A stretch of 64,000 nucleotides of DNA from Eledone cirrhosa (lineage: Eukaryota), in the NCBI GenBank assembly GCA_964016885.1, contig OZ024758.1:30442001-30506000 (forward strand), given 5' to 3'. The number at the start of each line of letters is the position of its first letter. The stretch's first letter is position 1. The notes under the pieces were generated by a model. The model was not told where the DNA came from, did not search any database, and saw only the letters and a list, made by a program, of their open reading frames with translations. Made by a program: the position numbers and the translations under genes. Of this stretch, positions 5,256-58,859 are shown piece by piece.

Positions 5256-6344
5256 CTAGTTTTAATATTAAACACTAATACTTCAATAAATGATCATAGT
5301 AAACCCCGTGTGCACTAAAGCTGCCAGTTTTAGTTTCAACCATAACATCCTATATCTATTTATCGTATGTTTATATTTTCATTCTAAAAGAATTGTGAGC
5401 AATTTGTAATATTATTTATGTATATATATATATGTTATTTATGTATATATATATATATATGTTATTTATATATATATATTATTTAATAAAATCATCCATT
5501 ACCATTGTAAACCAGTGTCCTTGGGGAAGAAAATATGACGACTCTTCTTTTGAAATAGAGTTTGTGAGATTAGTTAAAAAAAAGACGCAGTGTAAAATTT
5601 TAGCGAGCCGGTTTCACTTTCATCGTAGTTGCTAATATTTTAGAAGAGGCTATGTAGCCGGGAAAGATGTGAGACACCATGAGTTGCGGCCCGAGTTAAA
5701 ACAATTATTAAGACAAATTGAAATATTTTCCACCAACTGTTAAAAAACAAGTTAAAATCATTTAGTCGTCCATTCATAACATACGTTATGCTTTAGTTAC
5801 ATACACACATCTACACGTAAATACATAAACAGATACAGACAACAGAATGACGGGGCTGGTGAAACGTTATAGCGATGTGTGTTGCATTTCTTTAGGGTTT
5901 ACCGGCTGCATAGCCTATTCTAATATTATTTTAGAGAGAGAGAGATGGAGAGACATCTGAGAAATTTGATGAATTACCTAATGTATGTATGAACGCAATG
6001 ATATGTATGCATACACGTGTGTCTTGCGATCATATCTGCAGGCCTGATGACCTTCGAAATCTGTCTCGATCCAATAAGCGAGCCTGTATGTGAATACTCG
6101 ACATGTTAGAAATCTCCATCAGATCAAATCCTACCATCTTAAAAAAAGATGAACACCTTGCACAATGTCGTAGATATACAAAAAGACGGGTTATGGCTTA
6201 ACGGTCTTTGATCATAGATCTGCTCGATTATGCTGCCTGTTGTGTAACATAAGTGCAAAACCTTTAACTCCCAGTTATTCTCCCTACTAACTAATCATAT
6301 TTGATGCTCAGTTATATATATATATATATATTTATATATATAGA

Positions 6345-6845
6345 TGGAATAGAATGAAACGAAATTTCATTTCTCACTCTTAGTACGGCACTTACTTAAA
6401 TGTATGTATGTATACGTACATACATATATGTATACAGACGTACAGTAGTATGTATATATATACATACATGCACACATATATATATATGCACGTATCGGTT
6501 TACCGAACATTTATTATAATGCTCGGTTTGTTTGTAAACAAACAAACAGCCCGAATTACGCCGTACAGTGTTTAGGCAACCACGTCACCTTTTTGTTCAA
6601 CACTGACACAGGAACGATGTACTAGTTTCAAGCTTATGTTCCTGTGTCAGTGTTGAACAAAAAGGTGACGTGGTTGCCTAAACACTGTACGGCGTAATTC
6701 GGGCTGTTTGTTTGTTTAAACAAACAAACCGAGCATTATAATAAATGTTCGGTAAACCGATAAGTGCATATATATATGTGTGCATGTATGTATATATATA
6801 CATACTACTGTACGTCTGTATACATATATGTATGTACGTATACAT
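6345..6845. repeat. Fold-back (inverted) copy of family-B hammerhead repeat; arms 6408-6615 and 6638-6845, 22-nt loop
   Basis: The arms are near-perfect reverse complements and homologous to 57001-57758. Confidence 0.9.
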
Positions 6846-8325: not shown

Positions 8326-11300
8326 TGGCGCCGTGGTGGTGTGGCGCGCTGACCTCTACACGGCTGAAGCCCTCAGGTAGCTCCGTAACCCCTTCTTCTA
8401 CCGCCCTCTACCCTCCGATCCCACACCCCTCTACCAACAACAAGTTTCCTCCACCATCCAACACCTTGTCTCCTCCTCCCTCCTCCCCCACTGCTTCCCA
8501 CCTCAGTGTCCACAGCCCCTGCACCCCCACTATCTACTTCCTCCACAAACCTGACAACCCATCGTCTCTGCTTGCAACTGCCCCACCGAACTCATCTCCG
8601 CCTTTCTTGACTCCATCCTCGCTTCCCTCGTCACCACCCTCCCCTCCCACATCTCCGACACCAACCACGCCCTTCGCCTATTCGACTCCTTCACCTTCCC
8701 ACCCGGCCCACAGCCCTTCCTCTTCACCCTAGATATCAAGTCGCTCTATACTGTCATCCCCCACGCCGACGGCCTACGTGCCCTCAAGCACTACCTCAAC
8801 TTTAACCCCTCCCCCATCCCCTTCACCCCCACCCTCCTTCGCCTCGCCGAGCTGGTCCTCACCCTCAACTGTTTCTCCTCGGGTGAGTTTTACCAACAGG
8901 TCACGGGCGTAGCCATGGTCACAAGAATGGGCCCAAACTATGCCAACCTTTTCGTTGGCCATGTTGAGGCCCAAATCTTTTCCCAGTACACCGGAGCCAC
9001 AACCCTCACCCGAGAACAGCTCGACTCCTTTCTCTCCTTCTTTTGCTCCTTCCACCCCTTCCCTCCACTTCACCACCTCTATCTCCACCACCCACGTCCA
9101 CTTCTTAGACATCTCCGTCGCCATCGACCTCTCCCACCATTCCCTTGTCACCTCCGCCCTCTTCAAACCCACCGACTTCCACTCCTACCTCGACTTCACC
9201 TCCTCCCACCCTACACACACTAAACACTCTATTCCCTACTCCCAACTCCTCAGGATCCGCCGCCTCTGCAGCCGAGATGCTGATATTAAGTCCCAGGCCC
9301 TTTCCCCAGTCATTTCATCCGCAGAGGTTACCCCCCCCTTCGTCCACATCGCCCTCACTCACGCCCTTGCTGTCCACCACTCCACCACCCTCACCCCACG
9401 CTACCGCACACCCACCCACCATCTCCCTTTCCCCATCACCTACCACCCCTACCCCTGCACCGCACCATCCTCCGCCTCTTCTGACGCCTCCACCTCCCAC
9501 ATCTTCTCAGCCCCACCACTCCCCTCCTTCAAACGCGCACGCAATCTCCGCACCCTCCTCGTCCGCAGCTCCCTACCCCCAACCCACGCTCTTCCCCCCC
9601 CGGTTCCCTTCTCTGTTCCAGGCCTCGTTGCAACACCTGTCCCCACATCACCAACACCACCACCTTCCAGGGTCCCAACGGCCACTCTCTCTCTCTGTCC
9701 TGCACGCCTTCCGCTGCACCTCCTCCAACCTAGTCTATGGACTTCGCTGCACGGAGTGCAGCGCAACCTACATCGGACTGACTGGACGTCGCCTGGCGGA
9801 CCGTTTCACCGAACACCTCCGAGATATTCGTCTTGGCGGTAGTTCCCCCATCGCCCGCCACTTTGGCTCCCCTGGACATTCCGCGCACCACCTCACAGTC
9901 TGTGGCCTACTCCAATGCCACGGAACACCCGCCTCAGGGTCGAACAACGCACCGTCTTCACCCTACAGACCCACACTCCTCCCGGCCTGAACTCTCCACC
10001 CCTATTCCTTTAGCCTTCGACCCCCCCCCCCCCCCACACACACACATATCCCCCACTAACACACTCCTCCTTTTCACCGCCCACCCCACAACTAACAATA
10101 CTAACATCCCCCTTTCCCCCTCCCCTATCACGCACACACCCACCGGTACATATATACATGCACTCACACTAACCACACACCCTGCTACCACCACTAACCC
10201 ACACATCCACCCCTACCACCCCACAACTAATACCACTAACATCCCCCGACCACACGAACACACACCCACCCACACCCACTTACACCACCCACTCTACACA
10301 CCCTATCACCACTGACCCCCACTAACACACCCGCATTCAACCCTTTCCCCACCACCAGTACACTAACACCCACTACACTCCGTTCACCACACACACACTC
10401 ATCCAAACATGCACACACACACCAGTACACTACACTCCCTCCACCGTCCCCCACACCTTTCTCTCCCTCTCCCTGCTCCACCCACACCCCTTCACACACA
10501 CATCCCACTAACACCTCTACTAATACCCCCCTCCCCCGCACGACCCCCTCCCCACTCCACCTTTCACACCTACCCATCCTCTCCCCTGTCCACCACACCT
10601 CCACACACACTGACACACTGACTTTCTCCACCTGCCATTCTCCTCTACCCTCCTCCTGCCTTGACCCTCTGACCACTTCCTGTTGCGCGCGCACCCCACA
10701 TCTCCCCTCTTCCGACCAACCCAACCACGGATTACACACATTAGACATCGCTCCCACCATCTACTCCATCACAAGGAAAATATCCGGCATCTCACCACAC
10801 CTTCTACGGAACTACCCATGGACATACACACACACAACATTTTTTTTCCCACACGCCACCTACATCCACAATACGTATAAACACTACACACACGTGCGTA
10901 CCCCCACCTACTTACACACTCAGCCTCCGGAATCCTCTCCCCCCTCCCCATCTACATGCGCACACACACACCAACTTAAACTCCACCCCACACACACACC
11001 TTTTCCTGAAAATGGAACCTCGTTCTTCCCCCAACTTTCACATACACACACACGTACACCTACACACAACCACCACCTTCACCCCTCGCCGCTCGGACAC
11101 CCCACCTCCCTCTCACCACTCCACCCGCCACCATCACTACACGCCCCACACCCTTCCACCACTTGTTTATCTTCGTTTATTTTTATTTATATTATTTTTT
11201 AATATTTATTTTCATTTGTACCCCTTCCCCCCCCCTTTATCTAAATGTCTCTCCCACACTCCCCTACACACCCTTGGAACTCTCTTCCCACACACTTTTC

Positions 11301-11416
11301 GCCTGAAGAAAGGCTTATGCCCGAAACGTCGTTCCCTCCCCCACTTTCAAGAACGTGAAACTAATAAACCTTTGTTCGTACTGCCTCTCTGTTTTGTTCC
11401 CGTTCCATTTTTCACT
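8326..11416 (+). mobile_element. Penelope-like element (Neptune-type), frameshifted RT plus GIY-YIG, C-rich 3' UTR and HHR-bearing end
   Basis: Motifs LDIKSLYT.IPH, GVAM.TRMGPNYANLFVG, FLDI, KPTD.HSYL, SIPYSQLLRIRRLCS and NLVYGLRC..C...YIG.TGR.L..RF.EH. Flanked by (TA)n on both sides. Confidence 0.9.
11300..11332 (+). ncRNA. Minimal hammerhead ribozyme motif of the Penelope element (stem I degenerate)
   Basis: CTGAAGA(11303-09), aa, ggc-ttat-gcc, c, GAAA(11323-26), CGTC, with an ACGT palindrome as stem III. AATAAA follows about 35 nt downstream. Confidence 0.6.
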
Positions 11417-11440
11417 ATATATATATATATATATGTATAT

Positions 11441-16043: not shown

Positions 16044-16388
16044 TCATCATCATCATCATCATCATTTTACGTCCGCTTTTCCCTACTTGCAAGGGTGGGA
16101 CGGGAACTGATTCTGGCTTGATTTCTACAGCTGGATGCCCTTCCTAACACCAACCTCATTTACAGTGAGTGCTGGGTGCTTTTTTGCTGTGGCACCTCCA
16201 CGACCACTTTGCAGTGGAATGATAGGGACCTCAGTCCCTATCATCTCATTTCTACATCTGAGTAAACTGGAGCAATGTGAAATAATGTGTCTTGCTCAAG
16301 GAAACAACACATCACCCGGTGTGAGAATTGAACTCACAATCTTTCGATTGCAAGGCCAATGCTCTAACCACTAAGCCATATGCCTCCG
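16044..16388 (-). mobile_element. tRNA-headed CORE-like SINE with RTE tail, inverted relative to 15397-15733
   Basis: Reverse complement of the neighbouring copy. Confidence 0.88.
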
Positions 16389-17310: not shown

Positions 17311-17354
17311 CTAGTTGCGTTGTTTGGAAGTGTTTATGATTTCTATGTACTGCG

Positions 17355-18070
17355 TTTTGGTGTCATGACAAAAAGCACCCAGTCCACTCTGTAAAGTGGT
17401 CGTCTAGGTGTCATGACTAAAAGCACCTTGTCAACACTGTAAAGTGGTTGTGTAGGTGTCATGACAAAAAGCACCCAGTCTACTCTGTAAAGTAGTTGTG
17501 TAGGTGTCATGACAAAAAGCACCCAGTCCACTCTGTAAAGTAGTTGTGTAGGTGTCATGACAAAAAGAACCCAGTCCACTCTGTAAAGTAGTCGTGTAGG
17601 TGTCATGACAAAAAGCACCCAGTCCACTCTGTAAAGTAGTCGTGTAGGTGTCATGACAAAAAGCACCCAGCCCACTCTGTAAAGTAGTCGTGTAGGTGTC
17701 ATGACAGAAAGCACCCAGTCTACTCTGTAAAGTAGTTGTGTAGGTGTCATGACAAAAAGCACCCAGTCCACTCTGTAAAGTAGTTGTGTAGGTGTCATGA
17801 CAAAAAGCACCCAGTCCACTCTGTAAAGTAGTCGTGTAGGTGTCATGACAAAAAGCACCCAGTCCACTCTGTAAAGTAGTTGTGTAGGTGTCATGACAAA
17901 AAGCACCCAGTCCACTCTGTAAAGTAGTTGTGTAGGTGTCATGACAAAAAGCACCTTGTCCACACTGTAAAGTGGTCGTGTAGGTGTCATGCAAAAAGCA
18001 CCCAGTCCACTCTGTAAATGTGGTTGGCGTTAGGAAGGGCACCAAGCTGTAGAGACCAAGCTAAAATCAG
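17355..18070 (+). repeat. 48-bp VNTR array (~13 units) derived from the RTE 3' UTR
   Basis: Unit GTGTCATGACAAAAAGCACCCAGTCCACTCTGTAAAGTAGTYGTGTAG, followed by a GTTAGGAAGGGCA box. Confidence 0.9.
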
Positions 18071-18074
18071 TTGT

Positions 18075-31796: not shown

Positions 31797-32600
31797 AGCC
31801 ACATTTAAGTGGAGTGTAATGGGAGACTGTTTCCTCTGTTAGCAACAAAGGGCTGCCACATTTAAGTGGAGTGTAATGGGAGACTGTTACCTCTGTTAGC
31901 AACAAAGGGCTGCCACATTTAAGTGGAGTGTAATGGGAGACTGTTACCTCTGTTAGCAACAAAGGGCTGCCACATTTAAGTGGAGTGTAATGGGAGACTG
32001 TTACCTCTGTTAGCAACAAAGGGCTGCCACATTTAAGTGGAGTGTAATGGGAGACTGTTACCTCTGTTAGCAACAAAGGGCTGCCACATTTAAAGTGGAG
32101 TGTAATGGGAGACGGTTACTTCTGTTAGCAACAAAGGGCTGCCACATTTAAGGTGGAGTGTAATGGGAGACTGTTACCTCTGTTAACAAAGGGCTGCCAC
32201 ATTTAAGGTGGAGTGTAATGGGAGACGGTTACTTCTGTTAGCAACAAAGGGCTGCCACATTTAAGGTGGAGTGTAATGGGAGACTGTTACCTCTGTTAGC
32301 AACAAAGGGCTGCCACATTTAAGGTGGAGTGTAATGGGAGACGGTTACTTCTGTTAGCAACAAAGGGCTGCCACATTTAAGGTGGAGTGTAATGGGAGAC
32401 TGTTACCTCTGTTAGCAACAAAGGACTGCCACATTTAAGTGGAGTGTAATGGGAGACGGTTACCTCTGTTAGCAACAAAGGGCTGCCACATTTAAGTGGA
32501 GTGTAATGAGAGACTGTTACCTCTGTTAGCAACAAAGGGCTGCCACATTTAAGTGGAGTGTAATGGGAGACGGTTACCTCTGTTAGCAACAAAGGGCTTC
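31797..32600. repeat. 57-bp minisatellite, ~14 copies
   Basis: Unit GCCACATTTAAGTGGAGTGTAATGGGAGACTGTTACCTCTGTTAGCAACAAAGGGCT. Confidence 0.95.
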
Positions 32601-45211: not shown

Positions 45212-46380
45212 ATACCAATACAGAGAAGTGTCACTCTACCAATACAGAGAAGTGTCACTCTACCAATACAGAGAAGTGTCACTCTACCAATACAGAGAAG
45301 CGTCACTCTACCAATACAGAGAAGTGTCACTCTACCAATACAGAGAAGCGTCACTCTACCAATACAGAGAAGCGTCACTCTACCAATACAGAGAAGTGTC
45401 ACTCTACCAATACAGAGAAGTGTCACTCTACCAATACAGAGAAGTGTCACTCTACCAATACAGAGAAGCGTCACTCTACCAATACAGAGAAGCGTCACTC
45501 TACCAATACAGAGAAGCGTCACTCTACCAATACAGAGAAGTGTCACTCTACCAATACAGAGAAGCGTCACTCTACCAATACAGAGAAGTGTCACTCTACC
45601 AATACAGAGAAGTGTCACTCTACCAATACAGAGAAGCGTCACTCTACCAATACAGAGAAGCGTCACTCTACCAATACAGAGAAGCGTCACTCTACCAATA
45701 CAGAGAAGCGTCACTCTACCAATACAGAGAAGTGTCACTCTACCAATACAGAGAAGTGTCACTCTACCAATACAGAGAAGCGTCACTCTACCAATACAGA
45801 GAAGCGTCACTCTACCAATACAGAGAAGCGTCACTCTACCAATACAGAGAAATGTCACTCTACCAATACAGAGAAGCGTCACTCTACCAATACAGAGAAA
45901 TGTCACTCTACCAATACAGAGAAGCGTCACTCTACCAATACAGAGAAGCGTCACTCTACCAATACAGAGAAGTGTCACTCTACCAATACAGAGAAGTGTC
46001 ACTCTACCAATACAGAGAAGCGTCACTCTACCAATACAGAGAAATGTCACTCTACCAATACAGAGAAGCGTCACTCTACCAATACAGAGAAGCGTCACTC
46101 TACCAATACAGAGAAGCGTCACTCTACCAATACAGAGAAGTGTCACTCTACCAATACAGAGAAGTGTCACTCTACCAATACAGAGAAGCGTCACTCTACC
46201 AATACAGAGAAGCGTCACTCTACCAATACAGAGAAGCGTCACTCTACCAATACAGAGAAGCGTCACTCTACCAATACAGAGAAGCGTCACTCTACCAATA
46301 CAGAGAAGTGTCACTCTACCAATACAGAGAAGTGTCACTCTACCAATACAGAGAAGTGTCACTCTACCAATACAGAGAAA
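45212..46380. repeat. 24-bp minisatellite, ~48 copies
   Basis: Unit TACCAATACAGAGAAGYGTCACTC. Confidence 0.97.
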
Positions 46381-46725
46381 CATCATAAATGAAATATTGT
46401 TTTAAAGATTTACTGGACATATTCAATTTGTTGAATTTGTCCCCTCCACCCCCCATATATCATATTACTTCTTTGTATTTTCTTAACCCCGACCCTGGTT
46501 CTATGAAATAAAACCACTCATTTTAAAGGTTTCCAATTTAAATTAAAATCTTCCAACACAATTTTATATCAGAACCCTACATTAATTTACTTTCTTAGTA
46601 ATGAAATAATTGTTAATGTAAGTAAATCCATCAAAATTGTTAATTAATTAATTGAAATAGAGTGTATCTCATTTGAAATGTGGTCATGTAAGGGTTAAAG
46701 AACTTTTCTGCTATTTCTGTTTCAG

Positions 46726-47576: not shown

Positions 47577-47832
47577 GTTTACAGGAAAGATTATTATTGT
47601 TGAATACTGGTATTTAATTATATTTTGAAGAGTATGAATAAATGTATGAATAAGACAGTAGACAATCAATGAAGAGGTGAAGAGTTCATGCCTTGTCACT
47701 AGTGCTGCATGTGTCCATGGTTAAGACAGCACTCAATATCTGATTCTATCTAGCTGTGAATGACATTCATTAGAGATATGACAGCTACAGGTTTATATGA
47801 GAGTTGATGACTACATTGAAAATTTTACTTAT

Positions 47833-49717
47833 CGAGAGACATCATAGACCAACATCATATCTAGAGACATCATAGACCAACATCCCATCTAGAGACATCA
47901 TAGACCAACATCTCATCTAGAGACATCATAGACCAACATCCCATCTAGAGACATCATAGAGCTACATCCCATCTAGAGACATCATAGACCACCATCCCAT
48001 CTAGAGACATCATAGACCAACATCCCATCTAGAGACATCATAGACCAACATCATATCTAGAGACATCATAGACCAACATCATATCTAGAGACATCATAGA
48101 CCAACATCCCATCTAGAGACATCATAGACCAACATCATATCTAGAGACATCATAGACCAACATCATATCTAGAGACATCATAGACCAACATCATATCTAG
48201 AGACATCATAGACCTACATCCCATCTAGAGACATCATAGACCAACATCCCATCTAGAGACATCATAGACCAACATCCCATCTAGAGACATCATAGACCAA
48301 CATCATATCTAGAGACATCATAGACCAACATCCCATCTAGAGACATCATAGACCAACATCCCATCTAGAGACATCATAGACCAACATCATATCTAGAGAC
48401 ATCATAGACCTACATCCCATCTAGAGACATCATAGACCACCATCCCATCTAGAGACATCATAGACCAACATCCCATCTAGAGACATTATAGACCAACATC
48501 CCATCTAGACACATCATAGACCAACATCCCATCTAGAGACATCATAGACCAACATCATATCTAGAGACATCATAGACCTACATCCCATCTAGAGACATCA
48601 TAGACCACCATCCCATCTAGAGACATCATAGACCAACATCCCATCTAGAGACATCATAGACCAACATCCCATCTAGACACATCATAGACCAACATCCCAT
48701 CTAGAGACATCATAGACCAACATCATATCTAGAGACATCATAGACCTACATCCCATCTAGAGACATCATAGACCACCATCCCATCTAGAGACATCATAGA
48801 CCAACATCCCATCTAGAGACATCATAGACCAACATCCCATCTAGACACATCATAGACCAACATCCCATCTAGAGACATCATAGACCAACATCATATCTAG
48901 AGACATCATAGACCTACATCCCATCTAGAGACATCATAGACCACCATCCCATCTAGAGACATCATAGACCAACATCCCATCTAGAGACATCATAGACCAA
49001 CATCCCATCTAGACACATCATAGACCAACATCCCATCTAGAGACATCATAGACCAACATCATATCTAGAGACATCATAGACCTACATCCCATCTAGAGAC
49101 ATCATAGACCACCATCCCATCTAGAGACATCATAGACCAACATCCCATCTAGAGACATCATAGACCAACATCCCATCTAGACACATCATAGACCAACATC
49201 CCATCTAGAGACATCATAGACCAACATCATATCTAGAGACATCATAGACCTACATCCCATCTAGAGACATCATAGACCACCATCCCATCTAGAGACATCA
49301 TAGACCAACATCCCATCTAGACACATCATAGACCAACATCCCATCTAGAGACATCATAGACCAACATCCCATCTAGAGACATCATAGACCAACATCCCAT
49401 CTAGAGACATCATAGACCAACATCCCATCTAGAGACATCATAGACCAACATCCCATCTAGAGACATCATAGACCAACATCATATCTAGAGACATCATAGA
49501 CCTACATCCCATCTAGAGACATCATAGACCACCATCCCATCTAGAGACATCATAGACCAACATCCCATCTAGAGACATCATAGACCAACATCCCATCTAG
49601 AGACATCATAGACCAACATCCCATCTAGAGACATCATAGACCAACATCCCATCTAGAGACATCATAGACCAACATCCCATCTAGAGACATCATAGACCTA
49701 CATCATATCTAGAGACA
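47833..49717. repeat. 28-bp minisatellite, ~67 copies, with a 168-bp (6-mer) higher-order period
   Basis: Unit AGAGACATCATAGACCAACATCCCATCT. The AGACAC variant recurs every 168 bp from ~48510 to ~49182. Confidence 0.96.
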
Positions 49718-55684: not shown

Positions 55685-55742
<58 letters not shown>

Positions 55743-55786
55743 TAACAGGAGGCTGGACTGGTGTAAATCCTTGAAAGAGGTTTATT

Positions 55787-55844
55787 ATACTATGATCATT
55801 TCAATGACCGGGTTCCATATGAATCCGGTGATATCATCAGGTAT
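55787..55844 (-). ncRNA. Type I minimal hammerhead ribozyme A1
   Basis: Minus strand reads ATAC-CTGATGA-[tatcACCGGaTTCatatgGAAcCCGGTcatt]-GAAA-TGATCAT-A/GTAT. Stem I is ATAC/GTAT and stem III is the palindrome ATGATCAT. Predicted AUA cleavage at 55791|55790. Confidence 0.8.
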
Positions 55845-56999
55845 TTGAAATATAACAAAGGAATATGTAAAAACCATGGGTCCGAAAAATCAGAGACAGA
55901 GAGGACGACTGACCAACTAGCTGCCTTCACCTCGGTCAGTCGCCCTCAAAGTGATGGCTACTCGGTCTACTAATGACCATCTGGTGAGGGGGCGAAGGCT
56001 TATAATGTACTACCACCTCTCCGTCAAAGAATAAAAAAGGGGAAGAAAGAAAGAAGAAAAAAGAAAGAGGTCAGCGTAAGGGTCACACTACAGTCATGCT
56101 AGAAAACGCCGCGAAAAATGTTATTCCAAAGAATCTATATTATGTTACGAGTTATAGGATGAAATTAAATTAAAAAAATTGAAAAATAAATAAAAAATAA
56201 ATAAAAAAAAAATTAAAAAATTATTAGAAAATTAAAGGTTAAGGTAGCGAGATTTATTTAATGAACTTACAGAGAGAGTCTTATATGAAAAAGTTAATCT
56301 CGATAAGATATCAGGGTGGGATATAGAGTAAAGATTAAAGCCTTCGATTGCGAATCCCAGCCAGCACCTCCTAACCACGTGTCAGCCAGTTTCGAGTTGT
56401 ATCGTCCAGCGAAAGAAATGGAAATTAATTTTTCCGAGTACTCTAGGCACTTAGCTACACTAGGCCCCGGGTGTGCTAGCGGAAAGTCTACAATTTCGAC
56501 AGGCCATCGTCTATACCAAACGAATACTATTAAATCCCACATGAGGGGTTTATTTACGTGCCAGTAGAGGCATGATACAGCTAACAGTTATGCCTAAGCC
56601 TGGAATTTATAGGTATAAGTATAATATGGTGGTCAAAACAAGCGGCGCGGTGGGCCCGGGGCAAAGCATCCGCTCCGAGTAATTTCGTTTACCGAAAGAG
56701 GGGAAATTTATTTTTCAAAGCACTCAAGGAAGGCTGAACTTTCCGAGCGCCTGGCGCGCAGCCGGGAAAAGCCACCACATCAGTCGAAGGTAGCAAAACC
56801 CAATGAAAAGTGCAAATAGACTATAATTATTTTAAAGTCGCAGTTAGTCCGGGTTATAAGTAGTGTGGTTCTTTGGTGGGTAGGAAGCTATGAATGGTGC
56901 ATAATGACCTGAGTAAGGAAAGTTACAAATAAATAAAAGCAGGATACAAAGATAAAATACAAAGATAAAGAATACATTGATAAAAATACATTAATAAAC

Positions 57000-57163
57000 T
57001 GGAATAGAATGAAACTAAATTTCATTTCTCACTCTTAGTACGGCACTTACTTAAATGTAAGTATGTATGTATACGTACATACATATATGTAAACAAACGA
57101 ACAAAGCGAACATTATAATAAATGTTCACTAAACTGATACGTACATATATATATGTGTGCCTG

Positions 57164-57236
<73 letters not shown>

Positions 57237-57662
57237 GCCACTGTACGTCTGTATACATATATGTATGTACGTATACATACATACTTACATTTAAGTGAGT
57301 GCCGTACTAAGAGTGAGAAATGAAATTTCGTTTCATTCTATTCTATTTATCGTTTTCGGTGTGCCTGGCCGACTGAACTTCCTCGATATGCAAATTAGGC
57401 TGCTCAGCCGTTAATTTTCATAAGGAAAGTATATAGTTTCGAACGTTCAACCATCTGGCAGAAGGGTATACGGTGCTGACGATAGCTAACAAGCTTGAAA
57501 CTAGTACATCGTTCCTGTGTCAGTGTTGAACAAAAAGGTGACGTGGTTGCCTTAACACCGTACGGCATAAATCAGTTCTGTCCGTTTGTTTACAAACGAA
57601 CAAACCGAACATTATAATAAATGTTCGCTAAACTGATACGTACATATATATATGTGTGTCTG

Positions 57663-57699
<37 letters not shown>

Positions 57700-57752
57700 G
57701 CTACTGTACGTCTGTATACATATATGTATGTACGTATACATACATACATACT
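57000..57752 (+). mobile_element. Family-B hammerhead repeat insertion: inverted 3' end plus ~1.5 tandem ~0.5-kb units
   Basis: 13-bp TSD TACATTAATAAAC at 56987-56999 and 57753-57765. 57001-57090 is the reverse complement of ~57255-57345, and 57092-57290 is repeated at 57592-57758. Confidence 0.8.
57471..57511 (+). ncRNA. Type I minimal hammerhead ribozyme B
   Basis: CGGTG-CTGACGA-t-AGCT-aaca-AGCT-t-GAAA-CTAGT-A/CATCG. Stem I is 5 bp, stem II 4 bp, and stem III the palindrome ACTAGT. Predicted GUA cleavage at 57506|57507. Confidence 0.85.
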
Positions 57753-58440
57753 TACATTAATAAACGTAAAAAGTAAAATACATAAATAAAACGCCTTCAT
57801 AGCTAGGGTAGTGATGTAGAAAGACGGAAGTATATAAGAACATATCGGAGGAATCAGAGCAAAGGGGAAATACAATATAGATCAAGTTGTAGTAAGATAA
57901 TACAGGTTGTACATATAGATAAAGAGATGGAATGGTAACAGGTGGTACCTAGTGTAAAGTTCGGGTCTCCGAATTCAGTGTGAGTCACAGAAAAGTCCTG
58001 AGGTATAGAGTAGAGAATTCAGTCAATACAATACATGCTTTAGTATAATACGTAGAATTTAGTCGGAATCCGAATATTCCCGACAGGGAAGCAACATCGG
58101 GTGGGCGGTAGACCAAGCACAGAGCAGCCAAAATCCGAATGGAAAGTAGATCAGTTAATCCCATGCTGGCGGTAGATGTACACTGAAGTCAGTGCCGCTG
58201 TTCAATATTACATTTGGAAGTGCTCAACATTATTGGAGCATTATTTCTTTAGGTTTGTTGGTTCACCACTGGATAGAACTGGTCATTCCGTATGGTCAAT
58301 CCTAGTGTAATATTGTGGAGAGTACTCAACGTAGTGCAGTTCACCCGTCTTCGTTTGTGTAGTTGGTGGTGCGAACACGGAGTTAATTATAAATAAAATA
58401 ACAGGAGGCTGGACTGGTGTAATTCCTTGAAAGGTTTATT

Positions 58441-58498
58441 ATACTATGATCATTTCAATGACCGGGTTCCATATGAATCCGGTGATATCATCAGGTAT
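58441..58498 (-). ncRNA. Type I minimal hammerhead ribozyme A2 (identical to A1)
   Basis: Same sequence as 55787-55844; predicted cleavage at 58445|58444. Confidence 0.8.
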
Positions 58499-58859
58499 TT
58501 GAAATATAACAAAGGAATATGTAAAAACCATGGGTCCGAAAAATCAGAGACAGAGAGGACGACTGACCAACTAGCTGCCTTCACCTCGGCCTGTCGCCCT
58601 CAAAGTGATGGCTACTCGGTCTACTAATGACCATCTGGTGAGGGGGCGAAGGCTTATAATGTACTGCCACCTCTTTGTCAAAGAATAAAAAAGGGGAAGA
58701 AAGAAGAAAAAAGAAAGAAGTCAGCGTAAGGGTCACACTACAGTCATGCTAGAAAACGCCGCGAAAAATGTTATTCCAAAGAATCTATATTTTAACAAAG
58801 GCATATATAATGGGTGTCTGTATGGTCTAATGTGTGAACAGAAAATTGGAACGTTAAAC

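Follow-up and report, generated by a model that had tools for sequence, protein, structure and literature searches.

An ORF-less tandem hammerhead element of Eledone cirrhosa whose insertions bear features of Penelope-like elements

The window (the whole stretch of 64,000 nucleotides analysed; Eledone cirrhosa, contig OZ024758.1, positions 30,442,001 to 30,506,000 of the forward strand) contains, at 57000-57758, a single ORF-less insertion of 759 bp that interrupts another repeated element. The interrupted element, family A, extends over 55733-58791 (minus strand), has no long ORF and is bounded by terminal repeats of ~410 bp (55733-56141 and 58389-58791, 96.8% identical), each with its own type I hammerhead ribozyme (HHR). 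The insertion belongs to family B, whose tandem unit of ~420-500 nt carries no ORF and one type I hammerhead; the ~0.5-kb tandem unit nested in family A that an earlier note on this DNA had described is thus confirmed. ORFs across the unit are TA read-throughs only, of at most 94 aa, and the unit appears to have no LTR/PBS/PPT organisation.

The insertion is made of two arms joined 5'-to-5'. The inverted arm (57000-~57091, minus strand) is 5'-truncated, its outward 3' end is the tail-bearing one, and it is 93.6% identical to 57242-57350; it corresponds to the inverted terminal piece of ~90 bp noted earlier. The forward arm (57093-57758) amounts to ~1.4 units, 57093-57288 recurring at 57592-57751 (96% in both BLAST pieces). 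It is composed of a partial first unit (57093-57289, plus strand, unit positions ~303-462) with a palindromic TA arm, in which the expected internal (TA)n lies at ~57168-57233; the 'tail' (57289-57350, plus strand), ~60 nt that separate the two sites at which 3' ends of family B are fixed, form a predicted hairpin and would be the span between two RT start sites; the region upstream of the HHR (57351-57469, plus strand), which according to sequence and predicted fold also provides the 5' strand of an extended helix I; the hammerhead (57470-57512, plus strand), delimited by motif and fold, with predicted cleavage after 57506; and the remainder of the full unit (57513-57758, plus strand), with a second TA arm and a tail-less 3' end. 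The two (TA)n tracts differ by 36 nt in length. Upstream of the hammerhead, 57388-57395 and 57430-57435 are what we take to be an octamer-like and a TATA-like word, presumably with a promoter role. The description as ~1.5 head-to-tail units in permuted order is retained for the tandem arrangement but not for random permutation: variation is limited to the 5' ends, the 3' ends being confined to two sites. The copy holds one HHR only and is therefore regarded as a product, not a source.

A direct repeat of 13 bp, TACATTAATAAAC, is found at 56987-56999 (in the family-A host sequence) and at 57753-57765, its sole two matches within the window. It had been proposed as a target-site duplication (TSD). 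The repeat is present at both ends and the TSD is probably real, but it is not clean: in the right copy, the initial 6 bases coincide with the normal 3' end of family B (microhomology), and the ~8 extra bases that follow the motif in 11/11 family-A empty sites examined are absent from the window. Exact empty sites with the standard allele number 23 genome-wide; 0 carry either allele that would decide between TSD and no TSD. The TSD reading requires a private 8-bp loss; the alternative requires a private substitution and a chance match of 5 bases. Readable flanks elsewhere display a TSD of 11 bp for one family-B insertion (L175) and of 13 bp for one locus of family C, described below (L282); these are 2 cases among 67 B insertions and 8 C loci, most flanks being uninformative (TA)n. 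Because of these duplications a TSD is favoured in the window, and we hold it fairly likely that the 13-bp repeat is a real one, with priming microhomology.

The hammerhead is a motif of 41 nt (57471-57511) when helix I is counted as 5 bp, and occupies 57470-57512 when it is counted as 6 bp. CTGACGA is found at 57476, GAAA at 57497, the palindrome ACTAGT at 57500-57505 and the GUA site, with predicted cleavage, at its expected place (after 57506); motif, site and palindrome all agree with what the earlier note had reported. The predicted fold includes a 6-bp helix I with a bulged extension, a helix II of U.U plus 3 bp and a UAAYAA loop. Helix III is a 2-bp palindrome, a form described as requiring a second ribozyme in the portion of PMC4209133 available; the same need for a second HHR is predicted here. 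Rfam at gathering thresholds gave no HHR match at 57471-57511.

Across 18 HHR sequences (family B, family C and a PLE family, PLE: Penelope-like element; L043), both partners vary in 12 of 14 pairs, and 93.7% of cells are paired, against 32-44% when the partners are slid, the 18 sequences being three related groups and not 18 independent events. The core is intact in 373 of 410 aligned family-B units, and common variants within B are found in none of the 12 core columns, compared with 29/119 and 31/96 flanking columns; this conservation is inflated, most loci having been sampled via the HHR pattern. As judged from these alignments, the ribozyme fold is conserved in B, C and the PLE family. The U.U pair at the base of helix II is indeed shared by families A and B, as previously noticed, but family C and two PLE families have it as well, so that it denotes no special link between A and B; it was rejected as a marker of their kinship.

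Across the 3.0-Gb genome, the ribozyme core pattern has 24,573 matches and its control 0, which excludes a chance origin of the motif. A DNA search with family B gave 3,490 candidates, the 40 scored being at 95-100%. The 141 loci mapped are of three kinds: 54 taken in genome order from the core-pattern list, 27 top matches and 60 picked for tandem HHRs. Adjacent HHR pairs number 2,606 and 4,670 in two spacing windows. Collection of genomic copies, proposed in the earlier note as a way to look for tandem arrays, revealed tandem HHR units, up to 15 in a row. At least 2 HHRs in one arm are found in 16 of the 54 position-ordered loci, and head-to-head inverted arms in 27 of them. Family B includes at least two large subfamilies and several small ones; its monomers measure ~420-550 nt, depending on (TA)n. 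Five loci (L164-L168; G000:C1 51.77-51.79 Mb and 53.36-53.37 Mb) contain higher-order repeats and have grown to the size of satellites, about 21 kb and 11 kb. A second family-B insertion is located in the window itself, at 6342-6845. This copy, 50 kb away, had been taken as a sign of mobility. It is real, but it is only 85-92% identical and is head-to-head with the tail on its left arm, and its ribozyme is without the 5' half, so that no intact HHR is left.

The 3' ends of the insertions are at two fixed sites ~60 nt apart. The 5' ends are evenly spread along the unit, as in random truncation: 7/132 are no more than 10 nt from the cleavage site, where 10.5 would be expected, and 9/132 are at unit positions 160-180, just upstream of the HHR and around a putative start site (about 10 expected). 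For these counts 132 of 217 ends were kept, rows at unit 285-315 and starts at 15 or below being dropped; an apparent peak of 5' ends at unit 285-315 was disregarded as probably created by BLAST at a local palindrome. (TA)4+ follows 112/118 tail ends and 87/99 no-tail ends (199/217 in all); the window copy is an exception. The tail is carried by exactly one arm in 64 of 72 classifiable inverted insertions, by neither in 5 and by both in 3 (p=6e-12 against independence). The sample is of 85 arm pairings, 13 of them unclassifiable, and L152, L154 and L240 each give more than one pairing. The window copy obeys this rule.

The palindromic TA arm, the inverted ends and the satellite-like arrays found in some places are features that a MITE, a Helitron-type element or a plain minisatellite with an incidental hammerhead-like motif could display. 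However, the inverted arms are variable 5'-truncated copies and not terminal inverted repeats, the polarity (fixed 3' end, random 5' end) indicates reverse transcription, and the HHR shows compensatory changes. This explanation is highly improbable; end polarity, tail rule and HHR covariation effectively refute it. SINE-like mobilisation by a LINE has in its favour that RTE elements are abundant in this genome and that fragments that we take to be RTE-like adjoin some B copies, but it can be given hardly any credence.

5' truncation, inverted arms, a tail on one arm and (TA)n targets constitute the PLE signature, and for this reason mobilisation of family B by PLE machinery is considered very probable. 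PLEs are characterised, in the sections of PMC8557442 covered, by truncated 5' ends, partial tandems, a shortened inverted copy, a tail confined to one end and a bias for microsatellites; according to the same sections, tails of this kind are not seen for other non-LTR elements. In the part of PMC11167929 covered, the PLE tail corresponds to the stretch separating two internal positions at which the RT starts; the two strands are each cut and extended, and the protein is predicted to act as a dimer.

Candidate proteins are numerous. GIY-YIG candidates number 10,595 in the genome (150 scored), and RT ORFs of 1096 aa (Pfam RVT_1 match) and 938 aa (RVT_1 and GIY-YIG matches) were found. Five loci (L073, L075, L076, L078, L088) have long PLE ORFs (938, 1096, 636 and 551 aa) and near-identical inverted arms (99.7% in L088); on their sequence they are candidate active helper families. 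The neighbouring RT-EN families are apparently Neptune-like, as suggested by an extra Cys motif before GIY-YIG. In one RT-EN family, the L043 group, the HHR has the same shape and the same loop II as in family B; the HHR-like motif of L043, L044, L089, L090 and 13 related loci has core changes C3->U and G8->A in all copies printed, resembling a U3-A8 core covariation mentioned in the available text of PMC4209133. The likeness of B to an autonomous PLE terminus is at the HHR level only, in this L043 family. In a search for the autonomous partner, none of 70 fetched GIY-YIG loci (50 + 20) bore a B-like terminal repeat, and B had no BLAST-level match to PLE termini in these 70 loci, out of more than 10,000 candidates. 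Where B occurs within GIY-YIG loci (3 of 50), it is only a neighbour. Other helix-II variants, sought by pattern in order to find the partner, gave 0 matches, and when the tail region served as query of a DNA search, all matches were full-length and B-like, with no partner among them. In the window itself, a broken PLE RT and GIY-YIG fragment (8555-9906) has 30-37% identity to L073/L075, and an HHR-like core with a (TA)n end is found at ~11295-11340, ~1.4 kb after this fragment.

If B were merely the terminal repeat of an autonomous PLE, its copies would derive from full-length elements by 5' truncation. All insertion features are of the PLE type, and truncated PLEs are more numerous than full ones in the part of PMC4209133 covered; the flanks available are mostly ~1.5 kb (at least 1 kb on each side in 105/141 loci, at least 2.5 kb in only 29/141). 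However, each unit is preceded by a further unit, in series of up to 15, and never by the end of an ORF. Attachment of all copies to an RT ORF had been named in the earlier note as the mark of a plain pseudo-LTR (pLTR); with these flanks, B was found as the pLTR of an RT ORF (repeat-ORF-repeat) in 0/141 loci. A PLE protein fragment is found near 9/141 B loci only, and the two inspected in sequence (L124, L126) have terminal repeats of their own. The terminal-repeat explanation is accordingly very unlikely. The claim of a mobile non-LTR retrozyme stands insofar as B is a stand-alone mobile tandem HHR unit that fits the published definition; the opposition drawn between 'retrozyme' and 'pseudo-LTR' does not, since the insertions show both. 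Family B is a terminal repeat in the style of autonomous PLEs that travels alone, retrozyme and pseudo-LTR at once.

The RNA template can be approached through variation among units. In young insertions the units of both arms belong to one haplotype and in many cases have the same monomer length: in L163, 7 monomers over both arms have one variable site, and L229, L230 and L231 are similar. One insertion of family C has a 2-nt deletion in 22/22 units on both arms and in 0/84 units elsewhere. Minor variants are shared across arms in none of 15 of the 23 multi-unit inverted insertions. Divergence within an insertion is 2.6-2.8%, about half that between loci (5.4%). The template of the same enzyme could instead have been a linear multimer, transcribed from an array already present and left uncleaved, homogeneous arrays being derived from homogeneous sources and from DNA-level duplication, and the HHR acting elsewhere in the cycle or weakly. 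Non-fixed variants are shared across arms in the other 8/23 inverted insertions (four in L161, between unit -5 and the opposite arm), two insertions (L148 and L177) alternate two haplotypes, a family-C array has shared variants with a period of 7, and satellite-sized arrays exist (G000:C1 51.77-51.79 Mb and 53.36 Mb), all of which a linear multimer would explain. Unprocessed RNA is moreover the main in vitro substrate of an autonomous PLE (PAc), for which HHR cleavage is dispensable, in the sections of PMC11167929 covered. Against a linear multimer, the arms of young insertions share an insertion-specific monomer length or haplotype, which requires a one-monomer bottleneck somewhere; 5' ends are not concentrated immediately before the HHR (counts above); and the ribozyme fold is conserved. 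A linear multimer is possible but doubtful.

Several measures tell against a monomer circle as the template of every insertion. Divergence between adjacent units exceeds 2% in 39/87 multi-unit arms, age explaining part of it; a private variant is fixed in only 3/30 arrays; only 64/126 units have their nearest neighbour within their own locus; haplotype switches gave no signal relative to the cleavage site (2 versus 2, 69 ties). In the frog, 1 of 9 dimers tested was cleaved (bioRxiv 10.64898/2026.07.22.740005, part covered). The RT appears to pass the cleavage site without stopping, no 5'-end pile-up being seen, which fits rolling-circle copying. On this sequence evidence a circular monomer RNA is somewhat favoured as the usual template for most insertions, with multimers in some cases.

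Family B would thus be a non-autonomous PLE (a 'non-LTR retrozyme') copied in trans by a PLE RT/GIY-YIG protein, probably from a unit-length circular RNA; this is held with moderate confidence. The proposed cycle has four steps. An array of at least two units would be transcribed and two hammerheads would pair via their palindromic helix III; the paired hammerheads would cut out a monomer, which would then be ligated, a lone HHR in the circle being poorly active. Insertion targets are (TA)n or AT-rich DNA, and the inserted copies terminate at one of the two fixed sites ~60 nt apart. The protein would nick both target strands a short distance apart, each nick priming one cDNA, one per start site; two nicks and two start sites would produce 5'-to-5' arms, a tail on exactly one arm and a duplication of 11-13 bp, as seen in the 3 cases with readable flanks. 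The RT would then run past the cleavage site round the circle and stop at random positions, so that an arm would contain from 0.2 to 15 or more units, the range found. Some arrays have grown later by duplication at the DNA level. In its most specific form (a PLE dimer that nicks both strands, starts one cDNA per fixed site on a ribozyme-made circle and rolls up to ~25 times, B and C being very young, high-copy families that record this mechanism directly), the proposal may equally be right or wrong.

Metazoan non-LTR retrozymes, as presented in the parts of PMC7229834 and bioRxiv 10.64898/2026.07.22.740005 covered, consist, as B does, of tandemly repeated units without ORFs, a few hundred nt long, and every unit has a type I HHR; the axolotl motif, which works as a dimer, also has a short palindromic helix III, and PLEs have likewise been proposed as the mobilising partner. 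In the parts covered the PLE link is drawn from co-occurrence and pLTR homology; tails, inverted arms and TSDs do not appear in them. Unlike these retrozymes, B has an internal (TA)n palindrome in its unit and a helix II closed by U.U and not by G-C, and it is known from a genome sequence alone. ORF-less tandem PLEs are already known in Chlamydomonas: in the sections of PMC8557442 and PMC9977147 covered, MRC1-type non-autonomous Chlamys PLEs share with B the lack of ORF, multicopy head-to-tail organisation, microsatellite targets and 5' truncation. Naiad/Chlamys elements are without canonical HHRs and their partners are identified, whereas B has one HHR per unit and its partner was not found in the 70 GIY-YIG loci. 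The pLTRs of PLEs with C-terminal EN (Penelope/Poseidon, Neptune; PMC4209133 and PMC11167929, parts covered) have in common with B an HHR with palindromic helix III, an inverted 5'-truncated copy, a tail at one end and AT-rich targets; B differs by the lack of ORF, by a tail of ~60 nt instead of 30-40 and by arms of up to 15 units.

The identity of non-LTR retrozymes and non-autonomous PLEs has already been proposed (bioRxiv 10.64898/2026.07.22.740005, part covered). Judged on its sequence, B has the testable features of both, except for homology to a partner. The hitch-hiking of retrozymes on PLEs was earlier argued from co-occurrence and repeat homology; here the insertions themselves bear the PLE signature. 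No report of such an insertion-level signature for a retrozyme was found in the literature searched, most subscription journals and Repbase lying outside it, and B may already be catalogued. Of note in B are an unusually clear insertion-level link to PLEs, a near-strict one-tail rule and, as in C, the youth and abundance of the family. This system would allow two questions to be tested. One is whether circular RNA gives rise to PLE tandems; the other is whether the two RT start sites known in vitro are used on opposite target strands. If true, the two-strand, two-start rolling-circle reading could settle the origin of the tandems, tails and inverted ends of PLEs.

Family C is a sister retrozyme with a unit of 310 nt, 9,327 matches to a loosened HHR pattern and the same end rules as B. 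Its loci were obtained by pattern search (L278-L283 and L248-L277; G000:C1, e.g. 36481000-36494000 and 43582000-43596000). Near-identical arrays reach about 27 units, the tail is ~35 nt and there is no internal (TA)n, which makes C a cleaner test system than B. Family A has a unit of ~1.9 kb, 1,267 candidates and inverted arms in other copies, and is probably another non-autonomous PLE.

Other repeats occur in the window. A tRNA-like Rfam match (37.3 bits) at 16321-16378 (minus strand) lies in a repeat of ~310-350 bp, also found at 11438, 15397 and 41845, that is probably a tRNA-derived SINE. Minisatellite arrays at 17353-18072, 31798-32598, 45213-46385 and 47828-49717 have periods of about 48, 57, 24 and 28 nt. 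In a sequencing run recorded under another organism code (X5, contig record 9), a single contig of depth 2 matches 57290-57350 and continues with TA-rich sequence at the tail end.
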